Shown: positions 22,426 to 35,017, counted from the stretch's first letter. The stretch: 64,000 bases of DNA from Candidatus Bipolaricaulota bacterium (GCA_025061735.1 JANXAU010000004.1:1643-65642), one strand, 5' to 3'. Translations and numbers: made by a program. Notes: generated from the sequence alone by a model not told the origin.

Positions 22426-23118
22426 ATGGAGCCTATCGAGATCAAAGTTTTAGATAAGGGCTTTGTGCGGCTTATTGACTTTATGGGCGGAGACGAGACG
22501 GTCGTCTTGGCGGCGCGGGTATCTACGGGCAAAGGGCTGAAGGGCGAAGAGCAAGATAAAAAACTGATACACTATCTGATGAAGCATCGTCACGAGACGC
22601 CGTTTGAGCACTCGGTCTTTCAGTTTCAGATCTCGTGCCCGCTCTTTGTGGCGCGCCAATGGTTTCGGCATCGGATCGCAAGCTACAACGAGCGTTCGGG
22701 ACGTTATGTCGAGTACGAAGACGAGTTCTATCTCCCCGACCGATTGCGGCTGCAAGCCAAGTCCAACAAGCAAGCCAGCGAGTTCGGCGAGATTCCCAAT
22801 GAGCAAGAGCTTCTCAAAATGATCCAAGAGACGTACGATCTCGTCTATGAACGATACGAGAAGCTCTTGGCGGCAGGCGTGGCGCGCGAATTGGCGCGAA
22901 TGATCTTGCCCCTCTCGCTCTACACGCAGTTCTACTGGACGATCAACGCGCGCTCTCTGATGAACTTTATCAATCTACGCGCCGACGCGGGCGCACAGTG
23001 GGAGATCCGTCAGTACGCCGAAGCGATTGCCAAGATCTTCAAAGCGAAGATGCCCTGGACATGGGAGGCGTTTGTGCAGCACGTCTGGCGCGGGGAGAAC
23101 CCCGCCATCACGCCGTGA
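22426..23118 (+). CDS. thyX: FAD-dependent thymidylate synthase
   Basis: The ThyX signature [14 protein letters not shown] (RHRxxSxxxxSxR) is present. It is about 230 aa. Confidence 0.9.
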
Positions 23119-24205
23119 GCAACTTACGGTAGCGATAATACGCGGCGCACGCGCCTTCGGATGAGACCATCGGCGCTCCTAAAGGATGCTCCGGCGTGCA
23201 GCGCGTCCCAAACGCCGGACACTCGTGAGGCTTCTTCACGCCCTGCAACACCAAGCCCGCGATGCACTCCGACGCCTCCTCAACCGAGCGAGCCGTCAGG
23301 CCGAACTTTCTCTCTGCGTCAAACTCTTTGTATTTTTCTGTCAGGCCCAGCCCGCTTTGGGGGATCTCTCCGATGCCGCGCCACTTGCGAGGCACGACGC
23401 AGAAGACCTCACGGATCAGCTCTTGCGCTCTTCTGTTGCCCTCGCGGCGCACCGAGCGCGTGTACTGATTTTCGACGTCGTAGCGCCCCTCCTCAAGCTG
23501 CTTGACGCACATATAGACGCCCTGCAAGATATCCAACGGCTCAAAGCCCGTCACGACGATGGGCACTCTGTATTTTTTCGCAATCGGCTCGTATTCAGTA
23601 TAGCCCATCACGGTGCAAACATGCCCGGCCGCGAGAAAGCCCTGCACGCGATTGCTGGGCGACGAGAGAATCGCTTCCATCGCCGGGGGAACCAAGACAT
23701 GCGCGACCAAGAGCGAGAAGTTCTTCACGTTTTGTAGATACGCTTGGTGAACGGCCATCGCGTTCGCAGGAGCGGTCGTCTCAAACCCCACGGCGAAGAA
23801 GACGACTTCTCTGTCGGGGTTCTCTTTTGCGATCTTGAGCGCGTCCAAGGGGGAGTAGACGATGCGCACGTCGCCCCCTTGCGCCTTGACCGAGAGCAGA
23901 TCTTTCGCGCTGCCAGGGACCCGCAGCATATCCCCAAACGAACAAAAGATCACATTGGGGCGCGACGCGATCTCGATGGCTTTGTCTATGATCTCGACAG
24001 GCGTGACGCAGACGGGGCAGCCGGGGCCGTGCACTAACGTGATCTGTTTGGGCAGCAGCTCGTCTATCCCGAATTTGATAATAGCATGGGTCTGCCCGCC
24101 GCAGACCTCCATGATCGTCCACTCTTTGGTGGTGATCTGGGCGATCCGGCGTGCGTAGTGCTGCGCGAGCGCGGCGTCGCGATACTCGTCGATGAAGCGC
24201 ATCAC
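23108..24205 (-). CDS. hypD: [NiFe]-hydrogenase maturation protein HypD
   Basis: The conserved HypD motifs [13 protein letters not shown] and the C-terminal [11 protein letters not shown] cysteine cluster are present. Confidence 0.9.
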
Positions 24206-24241: not shown

Positions 24242-25336
24242 TTAATAGAGTGTATAGGTGAATCCCACGCTCAGCCCCCAGCTGGGTTCTTCAAAGCCGC
24301 TGCCCCAGCTGGTCTCGGTGCGCAAGAGCAAGTTCAACGCGGCGGAGATGCGCAGATTCAGATTGACCGTGATCGTATGGAGTTGAGCCATCTCTGTGGG
24401 GTTTTGCCGCCCAGAGAAGCTATAGAGGGCTGTGAGCGCTGCGGTTGGGGAGAGGAGCCGGTTGTAGCTCGCCGAGGCCGTGAGGCGGGCGTAGCCGGTG
24501 AAGGGGAGATCGGCCTGCCAGAGGGCGTTGGCGAGCAAGCCGCTGTCGGCGTCGAGGGCGCGCGCCAAGTTCGCCGCGACTTGGACAACGGCACTGTTGG
24601 TGCCCGTGGGATCGAGGACTTCGTAGCCCGCTGAAGCGGTCAGATCGAAGCCGCAGAAGCGACGACTCTCATCGCTCAGCACGCTTTGCAGCGCGAGCAC
24701 GCCGCGCACTCCTAGAGTCGTGCCGAGGGCTTTCTCGATCTCTTCCAGAACTCCCGATAAGCCTAGCTCGGCGCGCCGCCCGATGATCTGGGCGATCTGC
24801 TGCAGTTGATCGTTGGAGAGGGGTTGGGTTATGATCTTCTCTTGCTGGAGGGCTTCGGAGACTTTGACCGCCTTGGCTAAGGGAGTGACATCGCGGAAGC
24901 GGCCCCAGCCTGCGCCGCCCAACAGAGTGACGGCGAGATCGGGCTGCCCCGGCACTCCCGTAGAAGCGAGCCCCCCGAAGAGAAAGAGATTTTCGTCGAG
25001 ATAGCGGCGCACGTCGGCGGAGCTGGCCATAGCGATGTCAAATCGGATAGCTTGGCCCAGCTCTAGACGCGCTACCCCTTCTAGCCGATAGCCCCATTCC
25101 GGCTCGGCCAGCCACGACACCCCTTGCGCGACCAGATGCCCCACGCTCACGTTGCTGCGATTATCGAGATATCTATCGTTCAAGTAGCGATAATCGCCAC
25201 TCAGACTGATCGCAAACAGCTCGTTGCGCGGGGGTGTGTAGTCGCAGATGTTCACGCCTTGGGCTAGAACCACCCTACTGAATACAGCTACCATCAAGAA
25301 TATACTGAGTAATAATATACTGAGTAATGCTCGCAT
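24242..25336 (-). CDS. Hypothetical secreted protein (signal peptide, beta-rich C-terminus) embedded between hypC and hypD
   Basis: It has a signal peptide (MRALLSILLLSIFLMVAVFSRVVLAQG). Its C-terminal region is rich in alternating Ser/Thr/aromatic residues and ends GFTYTLY. No known domain was recognised. Confidence 0.5.
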   Translation of the reverse strand: MRALLSILLLSIFLMVAVFSRVVLAQGVNICDYTPPRNELFAISLSGDYRYLNDRYLDNRSNVSVGHLVAQGVSWLAEPEWGYRLEGVARLELGQAIRFDIAMASSADVRRYLDENLFLFGGLASTGVPGQPDLAVTLLGGAGWGRFRDVTPLAKAVKVSEALQQEKIITQPLSNDQLQQIAQIIGRRAELGLSGVLEEIEKALGTTLGVRGVLALQSVLSDESRRFCGFDLTASAGYEVLDPTGTNSAVVQVAANLARALDADSGLLANALWQADLPFTGYARLTASASYNRLLSPTAALTALYSFSGRQNPTEMAQLHTITVNLNLRISAALNLLLRTETSWGSGFEEPSWGLSVGFTYTLY

Positions 25337-25429: not shown

Positions 25430-25693
25430 TTAGCTCGGAGGAGCTGGAGATTCTAGCTCACCCAACTCGCCCATCTCGCGCAGATACTCAAAGACTTTCT
25501 GGGCTTCGGCTTCGTCGAGCTTGCTGATGGCAAAGCCCACGTGCACGATCACATAATCCCCGACTTGGGCCTCGGGAACATACGCGAGATTGACTTCTTT
25601 AACGATGCCCCCGAAGCTGACCTTCCCAGTACGCAAAATTGGGTCGTCGCTCTCGCTAATGCTGATGACTTTTCCCGGAACGGCGAGACACAT
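25430..25693 (-). CDS. hypC: Hydrogenase assembly chaperone HypC/HupF
   Basis: MCLAVPGKVISI is the canonical HypC N-terminus (Cys2). The start was placed at MC. The ORF track adds 6 upstream codons. Confidence 0.85.
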   Translation of the reverse strand: MCLAVPGKVISISESDDPILRTGKVSFGGIVKEVNLAYVPEAQVGDYVIVHVGFAISKLDEAEAQKVFEYLREMGELGELESPAPPS

Positions 25694-25729
25694 CGGAGAC
25701 CTCTCTTTCAAGGCCCTCGCTCCCGTAGC

Positions 25730-28012
25730 TCAACCTCCCGAAGAGGGGCGGAAGATGAGGGCCTTGACAATCTGTCCTAGCGCAATTCCCCCATCGTTGG
25801 GCGGGACTCTCTGGTGCCAATAGACGCGAAAGCCCGCTTCGCGCAGCCGAGCGATCGCGCGCTCGGTCAGATATTTATTCTGAAAGCAACCGCCGGTCAA
25901 CACGACTCGCTCTTCTCCCACACGCCGCGCTACTGCGACGATCATCTCGACTAGTGTATTGTGAAACTTCGCTGCTATCTTACCCACCGCGACGCCCGCG
26001 CGCACGTCGCCTATCAAAGAGCGCAGCATCGCCTCCCAATCGAGCAGCTCTTGTAAGAGATCAAACTCATAGGTCTCGTCTGTCTCGATGCTGCCCAGCG
26101 CAAACTCAAGCTCCATCGCGGCTTGGCCCTCAAAGCGACCGATCTGCCTCAGCCCAACTAGAGAAGCAACTGCGTCGAAGAGCCGCCCCGCGCTCGACGT
26201 CACGGGGCTGTTGAGATTCTTCTGCAACATCGCTAACAAGAGCTTCAGCTCGTTCTGGGAGAAGCTCTGAATTGGAGCAAGATCGGCACACTCGTCTGTG
26301 AGTGCATCCCCAAAGAGTTCATACAGCACGCCGAGTGCAGAACGTCGTGGCTCTTGGATCGCGCGCTCGCCTCCGGGAAGACGAAACGTCCGTAAATGAG
26401 CGACTCGCGTGAATGACTCTCTAGTTGCGCGCAGAAACTCCCCGCCCCAGATCGTGCCGTCCAGCCCATAGCCCGTGCCATCCCACGATACCCCCAGCAC
26501 TGAGCTATCTAGTTCGTTCTCCGCCATGCACGCCAGCACATGCGCGTAGTGATGCTGCACCCCGACCGTGCGTGGCTTGCGCCCCTGCGCGTACTGGGTC
26601 GAGAGGTAGTCCGGGTGCAGATCGTGAGCGATCACCGACGGCTGGGCGTCGTAGAGCCGTTCAAAGTCTTGGATGACTCTCTGGAACGCGCCGAACGCCT
26701 CGGCGGTCTCTAAATCCCCAATGTGTTGGCTGAGAAAAACGTTGGAGCCGACAGCGAGCGCGATGGTGTTCTTTAAGTGCGCGCCGACGGCAAGAACGGT
26801 TTTTGATTGGGAATCTTCGGTTTTTATGCGGATAGGAAGGGGAGCGAACCCGCGGGCGCGGCGCATTACCAGCTCGCGACCTCCAACTATTCTCACAATG
26901 GAGTCATCCACGTGTCGCGCAATAGGACGATTGTGCACGAGAAAGAGATCAGCGATCTTATTGAGTCTTTCGAGCGCTTCGTGTTCGTCGGTGCAGATGG
27001 GTTCGTCGGAGAGATTCCCGCTGGTGGCGACGACGGGGAAGCCCAGCTCCTTCATAAGCAAGTGATGGAGCGGCGTGTAGGGGAGCATGATGCCCAGATA
27101 GGGGTTGTGCGGGGCAACAGAAGAAGCAATCTGAACGCTCTTGCGTCGGCGCAGGAGCACGATCGGCGCCTCCGGCGACGTTAAGAGCCGCTCTTCTAGC
27201 GCAGAGACTTCGCAGTGGGCTCTGACAAGCTCTAGGGAAGGGTACAGGAGCGCAAACGGCTTCTCTTCTCGATGTTTGCGTCTTCTGAGTTCTTGCACGG
27301 CGTCGTCGTTGCGGGCGTCGCAGATCAGGTGAAATCCCCCCAAGCCCTTGACCGCGACGATTTGACCAGTGCGAATCGCTTCGGCAGTTTGACGCAAAGC
27401 GTTATCGTGCTGCGCGAGCACGTTGCCCTTGGAGTCCCATAGCTCTAGGTGCGGCCCGCACGTAGGGCAGGCGTTGGGCTGAGCGTGAAAGCGTCTATGG
27501 GTTGGGTCTTGGTACTCGGCTTGGCAATCAGAGCACATCGGGAATTTTTTCATGGTCGTGTTCGGACGATCGTAGGGCAGAGCTTCGATAATCGAGAAGC
27601 GCGGGCCGCAGTGAGTGCAGTTCGTAAACGGGTAGCGATAGCGCCGGTCGGTGGGATCAAAGATCTCGCGCAGACACTCGGGACACGTTGCAATATCGGG
27701 GAGGATGAACGCCGTCTTTTGCCCAGACTCTTCGCTGTGGCGAATCTCAAACGCGGGGTAGCCGACAGGGTCGAGCCATGAAGCTTCTAAGCTCTGAAGA
27801 AAAGCTCGTGGGGGCTTATCGCGCTCGAGCCTGCGCAAGAACTCTTCGAGCTGCTCTTTGGCCCCTTCGACTTCGATGAAGACCCCTTGAGCGGAATTGA
27901 GCACCCAGCCCGTCAGCTTCAGCTCCGTCGCCAGCCGATAGACAAACGGACGAAACCCCACCCCCTGCACCGCCCCATAGAGCACCAGACGCAAACGCTG
28001 CCGACCAGACAC
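25730..28012 (-). CDS. hypF: Carbamoyltransferase HypF
   Basis: It has an N-terminal acylphosphatase (VQGVGFRPFVYRLA), two CxxC zinc-finger pairs (CPECL...CTHCGPRF, CSDCQAEY...CPTCGP), a YrdC domain and a Kae1-like carbamoyltransferase domain. Length is 760 aa. Confidence 0.92.
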   Translation of the reverse strand: MSGRQRLRLVLYGAVQGVGFRPFVYRLATELKLTGWVLNSAQGVFIEVEGAKEQLEEFLRRLERDKPPRAFLQSLEASWLDPVGYPAFEIRHSEESGQKTAFILPDIATCPECLREIFDPTDRRYRYPFTNCTHCGPRFSIIEALPYDRPNTTMKKFPMCSDCQAEYQDPTHRRFHAQPNACPTCGPHLELWDSKGNVLAQHDNALRQTAEAIRTGQIVAVKGLGGFHLICDARNDDAVQELRRRKHREEKPFALLYPSLELVRAHCEVSALEERLLTSPEAPIVLLRRRKSVQIASSVAPHNPYLGIMLPYTPLHHLLMKELGFPVVATSGNLSDEPICTDEHEALERLNKIADLFLVHNRPIARHVDDSIVRIVGGRELVMRRARGFAPLPIRIKTEDSQSKTVLAVGAHLKNTIALAVGSNVFLSQHIGDLETAEAFGAFQRVIQDFERLYDAQPSVIAHDLHPDYLSTQYAQGRKPRTVGVQHHYAHVLACMAENELDSSVLGVSWDGTGYGLDGTIWGGEFLRATRESFTRVAHLRTFRLPGGERAIQEPRRSALGVLYELFGDALTDECADLAPIQSFSQNELKLLLAMLQKNLNSPVTSSAGRLFDAVASLVGLRQIGRFEGQAAMELEFALGSIETDETYEFDLLQELLDWEAMLRSLIGDVRAGVAVGKIAAKFHNTLVEMIVAVARRVGEERVVLTGGCFQNKYLTERAIARLREAGFRVYWHQRVPPNDGGIALGQIVKALIFRPSSGG

Positions 28013-28113
28013 ATCCTCAGTATACGCACTCGCCTAGAGGGGATTCAAACCTCCCCTAAGACAGAGAGCCTTGACAGCGCCGGACGTTCTCGCTCTAATA
28101 GAGGCGAGAAAGG

Positions 28114-29856
28114 ATGGTAGATATGACAGATCAAGCCGAACTAGAACGAAGACTAAGAGCGAAGGCGAACTTCGCCGAAGCGCCCACCGAGCCTAGCCCC
28201 CTGCGCCCCCTCGGCGAGGACGAGATCGGACGCCTCTGCATAGCAGAAGAGCTTTCTATCGCCACCGACGACCAGCAGACCCACATCGAAGTCTATCTGC
28301 CCGAAGATAAGCGCAACGAGATCGCGCTGGGGGATTACGTGGTCATCCCGCTGGGCTATAAAGACTACAAGATCTTTGCCAGCGTCGAGAAGCTCTGCTA
28401 TCGCAAGCGCGACGCGCTCGACGACATGAGCGAGGTGCACGTCTTGGTGAGCGCGGAGCGCCTCGGCGAAGACGACTACATCGAGACGGCAGTCCTCACC
28501 CCCATCTCGATGATCGGCCCGGAGCGCCAAGCCCTCGAGGTGCGCTACATCCCTAAGCCCAACACCATCGTGCGCAAGGTGGCCAGCGAAGATGAAGTCA
28601 AGATCGGCCTCGATATCCCCGACCAAGGACTCTTTCTGGGCTTTGTGGCCGTCAACGGCGAGCCGATCCAGACGCGCCAGCGCCAGTACGTCCCGTACTA
28701 TCTCATCAACGACGAGCAGAAGACCGGCGATCCCATGATCTTTACGCACGTGCTCATCGCGGGGATGAGCGGGCGCGGCAAGACCCATGTCGCCAAAAAT
28801 TTCCTAAGGCAGATCATCGGCTCGGTCTACCCCATGGAGCGGCGCGGCGGCGAGCAACGCAAACCGTGCCTCGTGATTATTGACCCGGAGAACGAGTACT
28901 GGAAGATGCGCGAAGACCCCCACATCGCCAAAGAAGATCGCGAGATGCTCTTTGGGCATGGGATCAAGTTCGGCGGCGTGAAAGACCAGCTCACGGTCTA
29001 TGCCGCCGTCGAGGGCGAAGCGCGCTACACCGGCTGCCCCAAATATACGAACTTCACCATTCCCTTCACGCTCGTGCGCGATTTCCCCTATCTCATCGCG
29101 GGCGGCGAGTTGGACGAGAATCAGTATCTCTCGCTGGTGCAGCTCGTGCGCGACTTCTTCGCCCAGCGCGAAGACGGCACCTACGAAGAGTTCCGTCGCT
29201 TTGTGGACGATCCCAAGACATTAGAAAAGTACAAAGAGTCTGGAAAGATCCATCCGGCGACGTTCCAAGCGCTCCAGCGCCGCGTGGATCGCGCCCACTT
29301 CGAGCGAATCTTTGATCAAGGAGCCAACCCCCTCACGCAGCTTTACAACGACATCTTCGCCGAAGACGTCGTCAGCGTCTTCGCGACCAAGCACTTGAGT
29401 CCCGACGCCGAGCGCATCGTCGTCTTGGCGATCCTCTCGATGATCGCCGATGCCAAACTCAAGAGCGCTCCCACCGACTGGGGCCGACGCATCGAGAAGT
29501 TCCCCATCGTCTTGGTTGTAGACGAGGCCCACCGCTACTTCACCAAAGACCAGACCGAGCAAGATCGCATCATCGTTGAAAAGTTCATCAAAGCTGCCAA
29601 ACAGGGGCGCAAGCATCGTCTGGCGCTGGTGCTGATCACCCAGAATCCTCAAGACGTCAACGAAGCGGTCCTCTCGCAGTTGAGCACGCGCGTCCTGCTG
29701 GGGATGGAGCGGGAGATGGCCGAGAAGGCCGGCGCCCCCGCGCGCTACCAGAAAGTGCTGCCGTACTTTGAGCGCGGGCGGATGGTCGTCCATGCCCCGG
29801 ACAACTCCAAGCCCCTCGAGCTGCGTGGACTAGACTTCTGTCTTGTGGGGCACTAG
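28114..29856 (+). CDS. HerA/FtsK-superfamily ATPase (DUF87-like) with an N-terminal HAS-barrel-like domain
   Basis: Walker A is LIAGMSGRGKTHVAKNF and Walker B is IVLVVDEAHRYF. A downstream LVLITQNPQD sensor region is present. The beta-rich N-terminal ~200 aa precede the P-loop as in HerA. A putative promoter TTGACA-17-TCTAAT lies at about 28068-28096. Confidence 0.7.
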   Translation: MVDMTDQAELERRLRAKANFAEAPTEPSPLRPLGEDEIGRLCIAEELSIATDDQQTHIEVYLPEDKRNEIALGDYVVIPLGYKDYKIFASVEKLCYRKRDALDDMSEVHVLVSAERLGEDDYIETAVLTPISMIGPERQALEVRYIPKPNTIVRKVASEDEVKIGLDIPDQGLFLGFVAVNGEPIQTRQRQYVPYYLINDEQKTGDPMIFTHVLIAGMSGRGKTHVAKNFLRQIIGSVYPMERRGGEQRKPCLVIIDPENEYWKMREDPHIAKEDREMLFGHGIKFGGVKDQLTVYAAVEGEARYTGCPKYTNFTIPFTLVRDFPYLIAGGELDENQYLSLVQLVRDFFAQREDGTYEEFRRFVDDPKTLEKYKESGKIHPATFQALQRRVDRAHFERIFDQGANPLTQLYNDIFAEDVVSVFATKHLSPDAERIVVLAILSMIADAKLKSAPTDWGRRIEKFPIVLVVDEAHRYFTKDQTEQDRIIVEKFIKAAKQGRKHRLALVLITQNPQDVNEAVLSQLSTRVLLGMEREMAEKAGAPARYQKVLPYFERGRMVVHAPDNSKPLELRGLDFCLVGH

Positions 29857-31055
29857 GGGTAGACGGCACGCCCCTTGACAAAGGTCATCACCGGCCAGCC
29901 TTGAACCCTCAAGCCCTCATAGGGCGACCAGCCGCACTTGCTCCGTACCGACTCGCGCGTGATCGTCCGCGCGATGTTCATGTCTATAACCGTGATATCG
30001 GCGTCCCGGCCGACGCTCAACTCGCCCGTGGGCAGTCCAAACCGCTTCGCGGGGTTGGCACAGCACACTTCGACCAGGCGCTTCAGAGAGAGCTTCTGAG
30101 CGTTCACAGCGTTGAGCAAGAGCACCAGCATAAATTCCACGCCGGGCACGCCCGCGGGTGCCCTCTCATATCCCACGCTCTTCTCTTCTTGCGTGTGCGG
30201 CGCGTGATCGGTCGCTACTATGTCTATTAAGCCCTCTGCCAAAGCCCACCAGAGAAATTCACGATCTTCTTCGGTCGCCAGCGGCGGGTTCATCTTCAGC
30301 CAGGCGCCCCGCTGCTCTCGATCCCGCTCGGTGAAGAAGAGATACTGAGGGCACGTCTCCAGCGTCACGTCTACTTTCGAGCGCTTGGCTTCTACAATCG
30401 CTTCGACGCCGCGGCGTGTCGTAACGTGCACAAGATGCAGCTTCGTCTCGTGGGCGGCTGCCAGATCGAGCACGTAATGGATATCATCGGCTTCGTGCCG
30501 CGTGACGGTCTTGGGAGGGCCGCCGCGCTGAGCGTGGACCGCTAAGAGCTTTCCCGTCTGCGCGATCCCCTTGAAAATCTCTCGGTGGAGCTTTCTGTCG
30601 GTGATCACAAGATTTCCCGTCGTCTCGCCCAGATAGAGCTTGAAGGCGTCCACGTCGCGCGCCAACTCTTCTAACCGCCCGATATTGTCGCGCGTGATGC
30701 CCCCGTAGATCTTGGCGTTGACGCGGGCGCTGGCGGCCCGCTCCCGATACGCGCGCACGATCTCGGGACGATCCAGGGGCGGATCGGTGTTGGGCATGGC
30801 GCAGACCGTCGTGACGCCACCAGAAACTGCTGCTCTTCCCAGAGAGGCCCAGTCTTCTTTATGAGATTGGTTGAGATCGCGCGCGTGGACGTGAACATCT
30901 ATCCCCCCCGGCAGAATCAATCTCCCCGAACAGTCTATCTGCTCATCGCCCGAGAGATTGCTCCCGATCGCGCGAATCTTCTCGTCAAACGCGATGTCGG
31001 TCTTGCGAAGCTGGCCATCAACGAAGACGGTGGCATTGCGGAGGATGGTCATCAA
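29853..31055 (-). CDS. Cyclic amidohydrolase of the dihydroorotase/allantoinase family (PyrC-like)
   Basis: The metal-binding pattern is DVHVHARD...(K)...HLVHVTT...DHAPH with a terminal Asp, typical of dihydroorotase and related amidohydrolases. Length is 400 aa. Confidence 0.75.
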   Translation of the reverse strand: MMTILRNATVFVDGQLRKTDIAFDEKIRAIGSNLSGDEQIDCSGRLILPGGIDVHVHARDLNQSHKEDWASLGRAAVSGGVTTVCAMPNTDPPLDRPEIVRAYRERAASARVNAKIYGGITRDNIGRLEELARDVDAFKLYLGETTGNLVITDRKLHREIFKGIAQTGKLLAVHAQRGGPPKTVTRHEADDIHYVLDLAAAHETKLHLVHVTTRRGVEAIVEAKRSKVDVTLETCPQYLFFTERDREQRGAWLKMNPPLATEEDREFLWWALAEGLIDIVATDHAPHTQEEKSVGYERAPAGVPGVEFMLVLLLNAVNAQKLSLKRLVEVCCANPAKRFGLPTGELSVGRDADITVIDMNIARTITRESVRSKCGWSPYEGLRVQGWPVMTFVKGRAVYP

Positions 31056-32620
31056 GGGGATTTTTGAGCTAAGGAGAGAAAGTATTGGCGTACGGTCGCG
31101 CGCAGCTCCGTCGGCACGGCAAGCGCGTCCAAGAGCGCTTCGACCTTCTGATAATCTATCTGCGTCGGTCTTTGGCGCGGGAGCACTTGGGAGTGATCGG
31201 GCATCGCGGTCTGGAAGATCTCAAAGAGCACGTGAAGCTGCTCTTCTTGAACCCCTTTTACAGGGATCTGGCGAATCCGTTCTTGTAATTCAGAGAGATC
31301 GGGGAGGTCGCGTTCGGCCTGCGGGTCGAGAGGGGCTGTGCCCTTCGCGCCCGAGGGCTGGGAGTTCCCGTCGGGATGGCGCGGGCCTTCGCCCTCGCCC
31401 GCTATGGGGGCCTTGCCCGAGCTAAGTTCGTTGGCCGATTCGGATTGGCTCTGCCCAGAACGCTCGTCGGCGGGATGGTGGCCGGAGCGCGAGGCCAGCG
31501 CGTCTTGCAGCTCGCGCTGCAAGTCTGACAGCTGCTGCTGAAGCGCTCTCTGCTCTTCTAATTGCTTGATCGCCTCTTCGAGTTGACGGCTGAACTCCTC
31601 TGGGGTCTGCATCGAGTCTGTCAGCCCTTCTATAAGCGAGAACGCTTGTGGGTTTTGCGAGCGTAGGTCTTGGAGCAGTTTGGTCAGCTCTTCGGGAGAG
31701 AGCGCGCGGGCTTGGGCTTGGACGGCTTGCAGGTCGCGTAAGAGCTGATCGAGTTTATCTTCGCCGGAGCCTTGGTGGCGGGAGCCGAGGGGGCCACCGG
31801 GTTCATCGGTGGGTTTCAGATCGGGGGCTTGCTCGCGGCTTCGGAATGACGAATCCGGCGGGGAGTTTGCCGTCGGAGGTGCAGGCACGAGGCGATCTTG
31901 GGCCTCGCTGATCTCGGCTTGCAATTGCTGAAGCGCAGCTTGAGCGCGCGGGTCGTCGGGATTTTGAGTGAGGGCCGCGCGAGCCTCGTTCAACCGTTGG
32001 CGCCATTCCTCCAGCTTGGCGACTAGCACCGCCCCTGACTGGGGCAGCGGAGAGCGAGCCTCAACACCGGGCTTTTGAGGCGCTGGATCGTTGGTCTCAG
32101 CCATCGTCGCAGGGCGAGAGGCCAACAGCCCTTCGTAGTTCGTCAGCGCCAGACAGACCAGACCCAGCGCAAAGACGCCCACCCACCGACCGTATGTTTG
32201 GTGCTCCAGCGCGCGATCAAACGCAGCGGGCTGGCGCTCGATCATGCGCTCCCACTGGGCTTCCAAGAGCGATGCAAACGCCGATTTCTCGGCTTTGAGT
32301 TCATAGAGCGTGATGAGCCTCTCTCCCCATCCGATGCGCCGGTCGGCCCCATAGAGCAAGCGGGCCATATCTAGACGATAGAACCAGCCCAACGAGAACG
32401 CCCCAAGGGCTACCAGCAAATTGGCGCTCAACCAGACCCACCAGGGCAGCAGTCGTCCCGTAAAGATCTCTAGCCCCAGCCCTGCCATCGTTGCGCTCAA
32501 GCTGACCAGAAGCGCAAGACTGCTCGTGCGCGCGGCTCGCGCAAGGCGCGCCCGCCTCTCTAGGCGTCCAATCCAACGCTCAAAGCGATTCATCGAAGGA
32601 GAGTATAACAAAACAGCCAA
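31052..32620 (-). CDS. Hypothetical membrane protein with N-terminal transmembrane helices and a long Gln/Leu-rich coiled-coil
   Basis: Two to three N-terminal transmembrane helices are followed by about 300 aa rich in Q/L/E heptads (LQQLQAEISEAQDRL, LEEQRALQQQLSDLQRELQ). It overlaps the downstream amidohydrolase gene by 4 nt. Confidence 0.5.
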   Translation of the reverse strand: MAVLLYSPSMNRFERWIGRLERRARLARAARTSSLALLVSLSATMAGLGLEIFTGRLLPWWVWLSANLLVALGAFSLGWFYRLDMARLLYGADRRIGWGERLITLYELKAEKSAFASLLEAQWERMIERQPAAFDRALEHQTYGRWVGVFALGLVCLALTNYEGLLASRPATMAETNDPAPQKPGVEARSPLPQSGAVLVAKLEEWRQRLNEARAALTQNPDDPRAQAALQQLQAEISEAQDRLVPAPPTANSPPDSSFRSREQAPDLKPTDEPGGPLGSRHQGSGEDKLDQLLRDLQAVQAQARALSPEELTKLLQDLRSQNPQAFSLIEGLTDSMQTPEEFSRQLEEAIKQLEEQRALQQQLSDLQRELQDALASRSGHHPADERSGQSQSESANELSSGKAPIAGEGEGPRHPDGNSQPSGAKGTAPLDPQAERDLPDLSELQERIRQIPVKGVQEEQLHVLFEIFQTAMPDHSQVLPRQRPTQIDYQKVEALLDALAVPTELRATVRQYFLSLAQKSP

Positions 32621-32642
32621 AAGCCCGTCAAGCCTTCTGATG

Positions 32643-33302
32643 CTATTCAGCGCTGGGCGTGAACCTAGAAGCCCAAAGATGGAGCGCTGCTAAGATGAGC
32701 GCAAGCCCCCCATACCCAAACGCAAGAAAGAAGCCCTGACCGTGCAGAGGGCTTTCGCTGAACCAGAGCGAGAGCATCAGAAACGGATTGAGAGGATGCA
32801 GCACGAAGAACGTCACAAGGAGCACTACAGCTACCAGAGCGTATTTGATATTAAACTGAACGATCTCCGAGGGCCAGCGCCGCGCAATCAACCAGCCCGC
32901 ATAGGCCCAGCACCATCCCTGACCTAACAGATAGATCAAGGCGAAGAGCAGACGCTCCACCGCTAGCGCCGTCAAGCCCTGATAGACCGCCCAGTAGGGC
33001 AGCGAGATCACCCCCAAGAACGTCACCGGCGGTAGCAGCGCTATCGCCGACGAAGAGGCCGATTTTCCATAAGCTACCCCCATGTTCAGCGCGTATAGAA
33101 TAAACAATAAAATAGCGAAGGCGCTGAAGAGGCTGAGAAAATTGATTCTGGGTTCAAGGAGATCGTCAATGCGACTAGGAGCGGGCAAGGCCAGCACCAA
33201 CGGCACGCCCGTCAGCACCAGATACCCCAGCCACCATCCGGGTGTCACAAGCAGAGCGCTCTCGCCCCAAGAGGCTCGAATCTTCTCTCGCCAGGCCCTC
33301 AC
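32643..33302 (-). CDS. Hypothetical polytopic membrane protein
   Basis: Six to seven hydrophobic helices are present. The start was placed at a GTG (VRAWREKI...) overlapping the stop of the upstream gene. The ORF-track version (to 33479) would overlap the upstream gene by 180 nt. Confidence 0.45.
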   Translation of the reverse strand: MRAWREKIRASWGESALLVTPGWWLGYLVLTGVPLVLALPAPSRIDDLLEPRINFLSLFSAFAILLFILYALNMGVAYGKSASSSAIALLPPVTFLGVISLPYWAVYQGLTALAVERLLFALIYLLGQGWCWAYAGWLIARRWPSEIVQFNIKYALVAVVLLVTFFVLHPLNPFLMLSLWFSESPLHGQGFFLAFGYGGLALILAALHLWASRFTPSAE

Positions 33303-35017
33303 GGTTCTCTCTCCCTCCCTGCGAATACCACTAAATTTCGCGCGCGACGCAGCTCGGCATCGCGCTCCCCCCACAGAGACGATCCCCCGCTGCGCCACGC
33401 CACCAGCGCCACCGGAGGAAGCTGCCCCCGCACGTGATACCAGAGCGCTTGTGCCGCTTCGTCCAGATCGCGCGCCCACTCCTCTTCGCTAGAGGCCTCT
33501 ATCAACGCGATCTCGGCGTCGCTTTGAGCCGCAACCTCCCCAAGCCTATAGAACGCCCCACGCCAGCGCACCGCCACGCGCTCCAAGCTCTCCGATGATC
33601 TGTTAGAGACAAAGACCTTGGGAGGAGAGCCGGAAGCGTCCACCAAGAACTCCATCTGTGCAGGGGAGAAGCGCTCGGCCTTGAACGAACGCAAGGAGAG
33701 CGACTCGCCGTAAAAACGCACTGTCTTCTCGGAGATCTGAGAGTCAAGGTTCACGCTCAAAGCGCGCGGCGTCTGGCCAGTGCGCGTTAGGTTCTTCACG
33801 GCGTCACTCCTCACGGTGAGCTGCTGCTCCCCCGCACGCCGCGAGAAGATCGCATACCAGCTTTGCTCTAGACCGAACCGTTCGCCGCTCCACCCCCACA
33901 GCACGCTCAGCTCCAAGCTATAATACTGACGGATGAAATCCGGCTGGCGCAAATACCCCCCCAGCACGAGCGCCAGAGAGAACGCCCAAGCGACCGTCAA
34001 GGGAAGCCCTAGCTGGGGCTTCTGTCGCTGCCATGCGTTCAGAGCCGCAACCCCAAGGACAAAGACAACCAACAGAGAGACGAGCCATAGCCGCGAAGGC
34101 ACAGGAACTATCTCCCGGCCCAACGCTCGCTCCACCAAGAGCGCTTCGTCTACACGACCGCTCTCGCGTTTAGGGAGCCTCTCCCACTGACCGGGAGCTT
34201 CTGTAGCGCTCAGCCACACCCGCCCCAAGCCCAACGGGCGCTCCCACCACAAGGGACGTCCAAGCGAATCCCTCGCGATGACCCGCGCCCCCACTCGCAA
34301 CTCCCCGTCGAGCCGTAGCTCCCCTGCGTCCTCTAAGATCTGCAGACGTCTCAACGGAAGGAGCGCAGCCCACCAGCCCTGGGGCGTCTCAGGCGACACC
34401 GAGAGATCCCCTAATCCCAGATGTTCCAGCGCGTAGCTCCCTCCCAAGATGACCAGCTCGCCCCCGCGCAAGACCCATTGATAGAGCGCCGTGCGCTGCT
34501 CGTCGCTCAGGCGAGCCGGGTCGAGCCGCCCCCAGTAGAGACGCTGCACGCTCTCGTAGCTTGTCCAGCGCTGAGGAAGCTTGTCAAACGGGTAGGGTTC
34601 GGCACCGGGGACGTCGGGTGCTTCCAGAGCCAAGACCAAGGGCTGATCGCTCCAGCGCTCGCGCAGCTCAATCTCGGTGCGGATCAGCTCGTGGCCGTCC
34701 GCGCGCAGCAAGCGCACGTGAACGGGGACGCTGACCCCTCGGACAAGAAAGTCCAGCGCGAGCGTCTTGCGCGTGCGCGGCGGCAGAGCTACCGAGACCA
34801 AAACCCGCTCTACAGCCTCGCCCGCTCGCAGCTCTTGCGTCACCTCTAAAAGCGCGTTGAGCGCCGTGTTTCCGTTGCCGATCGTCACCGATAGCGGCGT
34901 GAGCGTCTCGGGAAGATAGCGACCGTTGAACCCAAATTCGAGCGCCTCCAAACGCAGTTGGGCCGCTACTGGCCAGCCCCATAGACAGATCAACCAGAGC
35001 GCTAGCGATCTACGCAT
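33299..35017 (-). CDS. Hypothetical secreted/membrane-anchored protein (572 aa)
   Basis: It has a signal peptide (MRRSLALWLICLWGWPVAAQ) and an internal transmembrane helix (LWLVSLLVVFVLGVAALNAW). No recognised catalytic motif was found. It overlaps the VKOR gene by 8 nt. Confidence 0.5.
   Translation of the reverse strand: MRRSLALWLICLWGWPVAAQLRLEALEFGFNGRYLPETLTPLSVTIGNGNTALNALLEVTQELRAGEAVERVLVSVALPPRTRKTLALDFLVRGVSVPVHVRLLRADGHELIRTEIELRERWSDQPLVLALEAPDVPGAEPYPFDKLPQRWTSYESVQRLYWGRLDPARLSDEQRTALYQWVLRGGELVILGGSYALEHLGLGDLSVSPETPQGWWAALLPLRRLQILEDAGELRLDGELRVGARVIARDSLGRPLWWERPLGLGRVWLSATEAPGQWERLPKRESGRVDEALLVERALGREIVPVPSRLWLVSLLVVFVLGVAALNAWQRQKPQLGLPLTVAWAFSLALVLGGYLRQPDFIRQYYSLELSVLWGWSGERFGLEQSWYAIFSRRAGEQQLTVRSDAVKNLTRTGQTPRALSVNLDSQISEKTVRFYGESLSLRSFKAERFSPAQMEFLVDASGSPPKVFVSNRSSESLERVAVRWRGAFYRLGEVAAQSDAEIALIEASSEEEWARDLDEAAQALWYHVRGQLPPVALVAWRSGGSSLWGERDAELRRARNLVVFAGREREP

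Follow-up and report, generated by a model that had tools for sequence, protein, structure and literature searches.

In the closest described systems, HerA forms a hexamer that drives duplex DNA into a dimer of NurA, leading to end resection downstream of Mre11-Rad50 (PMC9960219, PMC5448004, PMC3326311, PMC5715905). In Deinococcus radiodurans and S. solfataricus HerA, the HAS-barrel is the surface on which NurA docks and a helix-bundle domain is inserted in the RecA-like domain; the Walker A and Walker B motifs of D. radiodurans HerA (K175 and D487/E488) are separated by 312 aa (PMC9960219).

A gene for a protein with these motifs is present in a 64-kb stretch of DNA (the window) that is 100% identical to part of JAVQXX010000001.1 (185 kb), from the Candidatus Bipolaricaulota MAG GCA_033577865.1. 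Its product is 100% identical to a public protein (P0001) from Ca. Bipolaricaulota annotated as an ATP-binding protein. The sequence-only reading had presented it as an orphan or unusually partnered HerA-like ATPase, of the kind that recurs in anti-phage systems and in the end-resection machinery of bacteria. The protein is very probably the canonical HerA of a Mre11-Rad50-NurA-HerA system, encoded by a gene that has become unlinked from the operon, has a promoter of its own and works in trans with NurA. Separated from its partner genes and equipped with a promoter, herA would only look like an orphan.

The herA locus

The features of the locus are listed below, with residues in brackets.

25730..28012, - strand: hypF (carbamoyltransferase), divergent from herA
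28071..28099, + strand: predicted sigma-70-like herA promoter (-35 TTGACA at 28071-28076, 17-nt spacer, -10 TCTAAT at 28094-28099)
28106..28114, + strand: Shine-Dalgarno-like sequence GAGAAAGGA, 8 nt ahead of the ATG at 28123
28123..29856, + strand: herA coding sequence from the likely start (577 aa; the mechanical ORF begins at 28114)
28213..28713, + strand: HAS-barrel domain (approximately 34-200), beta-rich in the model, with many invariant columns
28762..28785, + strand: Walker A or P-loop motif GMSGRGKT (217-224), from sequence and alignment
29104..29343, + strand: helix-bundle domain in the RecA-like fold (approximately 331-410)
29509..29526, + strand: Walker B motif VLVVDE (466-471), followed by QGRK (497-500) and ITQNP (508-512)
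29853..31055, - strand: dihydroorotase-like amidohydrolase gene, convergent with herA, with a 4-nt 3' overlap

The mechanical ORF runs from 28114 to 29856 on the + strand and encodes the 580 aa originally given for the protein. That ORF stands, but the true start is most likely the ATG at 28123, giving 577 aa, because M4 is invariant in an alignment of 50 sequences, the public gene calls are 577 aa long and AAGGA is found 8 nt upstream.

The flanking genes were as originally described, and both are functionally unrelated to herA. The divergent hypF gene, 110 bp from the herA ORF, was identified by Pfam and by a TIGR00143 score of 885 bits, and the convergent amidohydrolase scores as a dihydroorotase (Pfam Amidohydro_1; TIGR00857, 329.6 bits vs a cut-off of 279). 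When the window was searched using tblastn, no NurA, Mre11 or Rad50 was found, and a Pfam scan of its 38 proteins detected no Sir2, DUF4297, nuclease or mobile-element genes, in agreement with the original observation that no partner is adjacent. The proteins scanned are housekeeping ones, including those of the hyp maturation genes, thyX, guaA, glnA, mdh, a murE-like gene, comEC, glycosyltransferase genes, hrcA-dnaK-dnaJ and lnt. The GC content of herA is typical of the window, and when repeats on either side of the gene were sought as the mark of a mobile cassette, just short matches were found, of the kind expected by chance. PADLOC, applied to two neighbours (the amidohydrolase and the 522-aa ORF at 31052-32620), gave no defence match beyond a weak, coiled-coil-like match of the 522-aa ORF to LmuB.

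Motifs, domains and fold of the HerA protein

Both HerA-type Walker motifs reported for the protein were confirmed. In Walker A, G217, G220, G222, K223 and T224 are invariant in the 50 sequences aligned, and D470, E471, Q497, G498, R499, K500, T509, Q510 and P512, from Walker B and the two motifs that follow it, are invariant in 50 homologues, so that the catalytic motifs are intact. The residues of the Walker B, QGRK and ITQNP motifs align to EEAH...AKEGRKYG...SQRP of the solved HerAs. Pfam matches were obtained to the DUF87/HerA central domain (PF01935; 38.4 bits, GA 23.2; residues 207-444) and to HerA_C (PF05872; 27.5 bits, GA 22), and a precomputed match to the HAS-barrel (PF09378) is available for the relatives P0030, P0047 and P0053-55. 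The NCBIfam HerA equivalogs NF040937 (HerA_Thermprot; 46.3 bits vs 800) and NF040819 (helicase_HerA; 30.2 bits vs 970), both built on archaeal lineages, were not reached, and scores this far below the cut-offs place the protein in a divergent lineage of the family.

The structure predicted by AlphaFold from 50 homologues (pLDDT 87.4, pTM 0.85) comprises a beta-rich N-terminal domain, with the beta-barrel region at 37-200, a RecA-like core and, at 335-399, a bundle of helices. As modelled, the protein thus has the HAS-barrel and the helix bundle inserted in the RecA fold that are found in the HerA family. The best full-length matches in a Foldseek search were S. solfataricus HerA (4D2I, E 3e-24), the T. 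kodakarensis HerA-NurA complex (9X1M) and D. radiodurans HerA (7WRX, 7WRW and 7F6D), all of them NurA-partnered. The defence proteins of Sir2-HerA and DUF4297-HerA ranked just behind these repair HerAs. The full-length alignment with HerA structures upholds the earlier description of the N-terminus as HAS-barrel-like. By analogy with the solved proteins, this HerA would form a hexameric ring and translocate on double-stranded DNA.

The stretch of roughly 190 aa between the Walker motifs had been singled out as an unusual insertion that might contain a nuclease-like fold. The spacing between Walker A and Walker B is 247 aa (K223 to D470), shorter than in the solved HerAs, for which 269 aa (8XAU) and 288 aa (8ZIQ) were counted from alignments. 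Given this shorter spacing and the known helix-bundle domain, the supposed insertion is a defining domain of HerA and not an addition. The predicted helices lie at 335-351, 357-365, 367-376, 381-391 and 394-399. A nuclease-like fold in the spacer was rejected, as the region is helical from 335 to 399, is covered by the DUF87 model of Pfam and matches the helix-bundle domain known from HerA; nothing nuclease-like was seen there.

Orthologues, operons and partner genes

Eight clusters of HerA are 83-100% identical to the window protein, and approximately 50 further clusters from Bipolaricaulota and Fraserbacteria are 54-67% identical. Outside the phylum, the HerAs of Methanosarcinaceae come closest (35-39% identity, 90-100% coverage). 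The genes for HerAs that are 52-67% identical to the window protein follow nurA directly, in most cases behind mre11-rad50 (loci L002, L003, L007, L010, L014, L017, L019-21, L026, L032, L036, L038, L040-44 and L047-49). Two of these, L002 and L007, with HerAs in the range 61-67%, are complete mre11-rad50-nurA-herA operons, and L003 contains rad50-nurA-herA. The order nurA-herA is also found in Methanolobus zinderi, whose HerA is 38% identical. NurA was immediately upstream in every orthologue at or below 67% identity that was examined, archaeal ones included. NurA is therefore the conserved neighbour in relatives, a finding that the original reading had named as one that would count against it, with the nuance that the partner here appears to be unlinked rather than lost.

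The HerAs of the 83-100% clade are found in four unrelated contexts, in each of which herA stands alone:

the window: hypF / herA / pyrC
L008: TetR / herA / FAD-binding protein
L001: RNase HII / herA / GlnRS
L059/L060: FTHFS / herA

In a HerA tree, these unlinked genes (window, L001, L008 and L059) form a single clade nested among the linked ones. None of the four has nurA adjacent to herA, and effectors such as Sir2 or DUF4297 were found neither in these contexts nor elsewhere in the window. The genes are under strong purifying selection (dN/dS approximately 0.07), with pairwise dN/dS within the clade of 0.05-0.11 at dS of approximately 1-1.6. For the HAS-barrel, dN/dS is 0.054 in the unlinked genes vs 0.050 in closely related linked herA, and the remaining domains differ just as little between unlinked and linked genes. 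Nothing in these sequences suggests that the predicted NurA-docking interface of the unlinked HerA has been released from constraint.

The earlier proposal that herA is monocistronic, with a TTGACA-17-TCTAAT promoter of its own, gained support from this clade. Approximately 60 bp upstream of herA can be aligned across the four unlinked loci, in which the upstream genes differ, and the conserved blocks are CTTGACA, the 17-nt spacer, TCTAAT (TTCTAT in L008), GAGAAAGGATGG and the ATG, with GAGAAAGGATGG kept in three of the four upstream regions. The same element and spacing precede herA in L001 and L059/L060, and L008 has TTGACA-17-TTCTAT. No element of this type was found within 250 nt upstream of any of 20 operon-linked herA genes. 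The site was missed by a scanner for consensus promoters, as the -10 hexamer has C and not A at position 2; the call was retained on the strength of the phylogenetic footprint across the unlinked loci, and the element probably functions as a promoter. Its presence at all of the unlinked herA and at 0/20 linked ones indicates that the promoter was acquired at the time herA separated from the operon and has travelled with the gene since.

A search of public genomes and metagenomes with a profile of Bipolaricaulota NurA recovered at least 44 loci (at least 13 of them from metagenomes), all of which were compared with Mre11, Rad50, NurA and HerA using tblastn. The 13 metagenome loci listed include none from the 1.79-Mb JGI contig that carries P0008. 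Two architectures were seen. In approximately 20 loci nurA is followed by herA, and more than 20 contain mre11-rad50-nurA without herA, with no herA detected by tblastn within the 2.5-7 kb of sequence downstream. The herA-less loci make up one large monophyletic clade in a NurA tree, with a few independent cases elsewhere, and are found in a context with lexA-recA divergent upstream and a SurA-like gene downstream. Judging from the distribution of these loci, the four-gene mre11-rad50-nurA-herA cluster is the probable ancestral state in Bipolaricaulota.

Genomes of the unlinked clade retain mre11-rad50-nurA elsewhere. In GCA_037440025.1, an unlinked herA (P0007, 85% identity) is located on JBBIUX010000002.1 and an mre11-rad50-nurA operon without herA (L035) on JBBIUX010000012.1. 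For other members, co-occurrence was assessed indirectly, from the proximity of NCBI protein accessions, which are sequential within an assembly, those of adjacent Rad50 and NurA differing by 1. The HerA that is 93% identical to the window protein (P0002) is 171-409 accession numbers from the Rad50 (P0244) and NurA (P0196) of L045. The window HerA itself is represented in three assemblies (MCS7273833, MDW8110749 and MDW8328393) and a near-identical cluster-mate, P0394, has the accession MCS6936514. The Rad50 P0235 (MCS7274717, MDW8109994, MDW8328934 and MCS6935957) is 541-884 accession numbers from these, which places it in the same assemblies. Its identity is 87% to the Rad50 encoded immediately ahead of nurA in L045, and 78.5% to the Rad50 of L039, which is a herA-less operon. 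Among 86 NurA clusters, no named NCBI entry had an accession near those of the window HerA, and P0135, P0143, P0331 and P0386, looked up as candidates for the NurA of the window assemblies, were all from other assemblies. In the exact genome of the window nurA is probably present, the operon-type rad50 being the gene traced there.

That NurA was lost, or HerA re-partnered, so that HerA acts alone, with Mre11-Rad50 or with a nuclease such as RecJ, is a reading that takes the orphan appearance at face value. It draws on the lack of NurA in the 64-kb window and of a NurA assignable to the window's own assemblies, on the independent transcription of herA from its predicted promoter, and on a RecJ-HerA interaction reported for D. 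radiodurans (PMC4663267). We nevertheless consider it quite improbable, as two related genomes with unlinked herA carry nurA, the operon-type Rad50 of the window assemblies is close to one that directly precedes nurA, and the HAS-barrel remains about as constrained as it is in linked genes. A NurA of the window species could, moreover, be hidden in the 90% clusters of P0150 or P0159 (85-92% identity to the nearest NurA), as a member other than the representative. A related view is that uncoupling and the strong promoter of its own mark a change in the function of HerA, towards a NurA-independent role or another partner and, at the extreme, with nurA lost in the window species and herA kept under strong purifying selection. 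This too is unlikely; if it were so, expression of HerA would be uncoupled from that of the repair operon adjacent to lexA-recA.

An anti-phage HerA, of the Sir2-HerA (Nezha), DUF4297-HerA or a related type with the effector encoded elsewhere, was suggested by matches to PADLOC HerA models (E 1e-22 to 1e-9) and by the first rank of anti-phage HerAs among PDB matches by sequence. Those matches fall mainly in the conserved Walker B and C-terminal ATPase core (residues approximately 410-560), and the NCBIfam HerA_antiphage models gave 42.5 bits vs 800 (NF042943) and 35.6 vs 850 (NF042944). With no effector in the window or the four unlinked contexts, orthologues in mre11-rad50-nurA operons, housekeeping surroundings of typical GC content and repair HerAs first in whole-chain structural matches, such a role is highly improbable. 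A place in another branch of the FtsK-HerA superfamily, as a VirB4/TraC-like conjugative ATPase, an FtsK/SpoIIIE translocase or a Ced DNA-import ATPase, has next to no probability. The NCBIfam matches to VirB4_plasma (42.8 bits), CedD, CedB, TraC and EccCb are weak, those to Pfam AAA_10 and Zot are near or below threshold, and the scores are confined to the Walker B region and far below cut-offs of 590-894 (VirB4_plasma 42.8 vs 590; for TraC, 14.6 vs 567). There was no FtsK_SpoIIIE Pfam match, no membrane segment or gamma domain in the protein and no T4SS or mobile-element gene nearby, and structure and phylogeny both place the protein with HerA, which agrees with its original assignment. Context, thresholds, structure and phylogeny thus led us to reject the anti-phage, VirB4/TraC, FtsK and Ced readings.

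For the canonical HerA acting in trans, the following course of events may be proposed. In the ancestor of the subclade, herA would have split from the mre11-rad50-nurA operon and acquired a sigma-70-type promoter, and promoter and gene would then have been carried together into different housekeeping neighbourhoods. Most likely, HerA has kept a NurA dimer as its partner in trans, with nurA at another place in the genome. Once a DNA end is threaded into the HerA ring, ATP hydrolysed at the Walker A/B sites, which lie between protomers, would push the duplex through the helix-bundle entrance, and the duplex would exit from the HAS-barrel face into NurA, which would degrade the strands to leave a 3' tail for RecA. 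Physical interaction of HerA with NurA, hexamer formation and resection activity are expected in this organism by analogy with the described systems.

The gene should be annotated as herA, encoding a DNA double-strand-break repair translocase, rather than an ATP-binding protein, and is not a candidate stand-alone defence ATPase. Beyond annotation the finding matters little, though three points are of modest value. A complete mre11-rad50-nurA-herA operon of the archaeal type occurs in Bipolaricaulota and Fraserbacteria; the break-up of this operon in one lineage is clean and datable, the departing gene having apparently gained a promoter and then moved repeatedly; and, if a single locus is inspected, the lack of a neighbouring partner says little in favour of an orphan.

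Comparison with known systems

The HerAs of D. radiodurans (7WRW, 7WRX and 7F6D) and HepA of Thermus thermophilus have the same HAS-barrel, RecA-like ASCE ATPase and helix bundle between the Walker motifs as the window protein. D. radiodurans HerA, like the window HerA from a bacterial host, matches the model over its full length with a TM of 0.61-0.63, but the identity in the structural alignment is just 15-16% and the spacer is 312 aa vs 247. In Deinococcus and Thermus nurA precedes herA (PMC5448004), as it does in the orthologues of the window HerA, whereas in the window clade herA lies apart from nurA, behind a predicted promoter of its own. The probable ancestral operon in Bipolaricaulota also includes mre11-rad50, unlike the arrangement in Thermus and Deinococcus.

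Anti-phage HerAs (8J4U, 8SUB and 8WLD; 8ZIQ and 9C1M; 8XAU) share the fold and ATPase motifs of the window HerA and have the highest sequence scores to it, over the C-terminal ATPase core. As whole-chain structural matches they are slightly weaker than the repair HerAs, and the window HerA differs from them in having no effector partner, a different operon ancestry and a housekeeping context.

The archaeal HerAs of the mre11-rad50-herA-nurA cluster (S. solfataricus 4D2I, T. kodakarensis 9X1L/9X1M and those of Methanosarcinaceae) share the motifs of the window HerA, and the S. solfataricus protein is its best Foldseek match. The archaeal equivalog models are nevertheless not reached by the window HerA (46 bits vs 800 and 30 vs 970), and the HerAs of Methanosarcinaceae are linked to nurA whereas that of the window is unlinked and belongs to a bacterial host.

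The hypF-herA intergenic region and family-less ORFs of the window

In the window, the divergent 110-bp intergenic region contains both the herA promoter and, a short way upstream of where hypF starts (28012), a promoter-like site, TTGAAT-18-TATACT. Within the hydrogenase-maturation cluster, between hypD (23108-24205) and hypC (25430-25711), lies a 364-aa ORF that had no Pfam match at E <= 0.01 and is also predicted, without a family, by public gene callers. No family was assigned to three consecutive ORFs downstream of the dihydroorotase gene, and their only matches were weak and sub-threshold (LmuB, IglI-family, EntA_Immun and DUF4350).

Features of the window
24242-25336, minus strand: 364-aa ORF
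28019-28048, minus strand: promoter-like site
31052-35017, minus strand: ORFs of 522, 278 and 572 aa

The operon without herA

In the large herA-less clade of the NurA tree, the mre11-rad50-nurA operon is divergently adjoined by lexA-recA and usually followed by a gene for a SurA-like PPIase, and is thus set in an SOS/recombination neighbourhood. In two Bipolaricaulota MAGs (L061 and L062), the second gene downstream of nurA encodes a single-strand-annealing protein of the Rad52/Mgm101 family, which is unusual in a bacterial chromosome context.

Features of herA-less loci
L054 249-8239, L057 1-8230, L061 and L062 245-8245: operon adjoining lexA-recA
L012, L023, L029, L035 (5' ends): likewise
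L061 and L062 9360-10034, plus strand: Rad52/Mgm101-family gene (PF04098, PF06420)

Further loci with nurA and no downstream herA (L015, L016, L051, L053 and L013) were placed outside the large herA-less clade of the NurA tree. The operon appears to have broken up several times independently. In the 1.79-Mb JGI Bipolaricaulota contig with an unlinked herA (L001), gyrA harbours an intein that includes a homing-endonuclease domain of the LAGLIDADG type.

L001 1-2157, minus strand: intein-bearing gyrA

The complete operon and its relatives

The archaeal-type mre11-rad50-nurA-herA operon is complete in Bipolaricaulota and Fraserbacteria MAGs. No mre11 was seen upstream of rad50 in the rad50-nurA-herA cluster of Ca. 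Fraserbacteria RBG_16_55_9 (L003), which is flanked by toxin-antitoxin pairs.

L002, L007, L010, L026, L032, L036, L038, L041-L044, L047 (whole loci) and L009 6728-9860: complete operon
L003 3805-4245 and 11651-12245: HicA/HicB and RHH/PemK toxin-antitoxin pairs

Outside Bipolaricaulota and Fraserbacteria, the nearest HerA relatives (35-39% identity) are those of Methanosarcinaceae, whose genes are likewise linked to nurA, a hint that an inter-domain transfer took place long ago.
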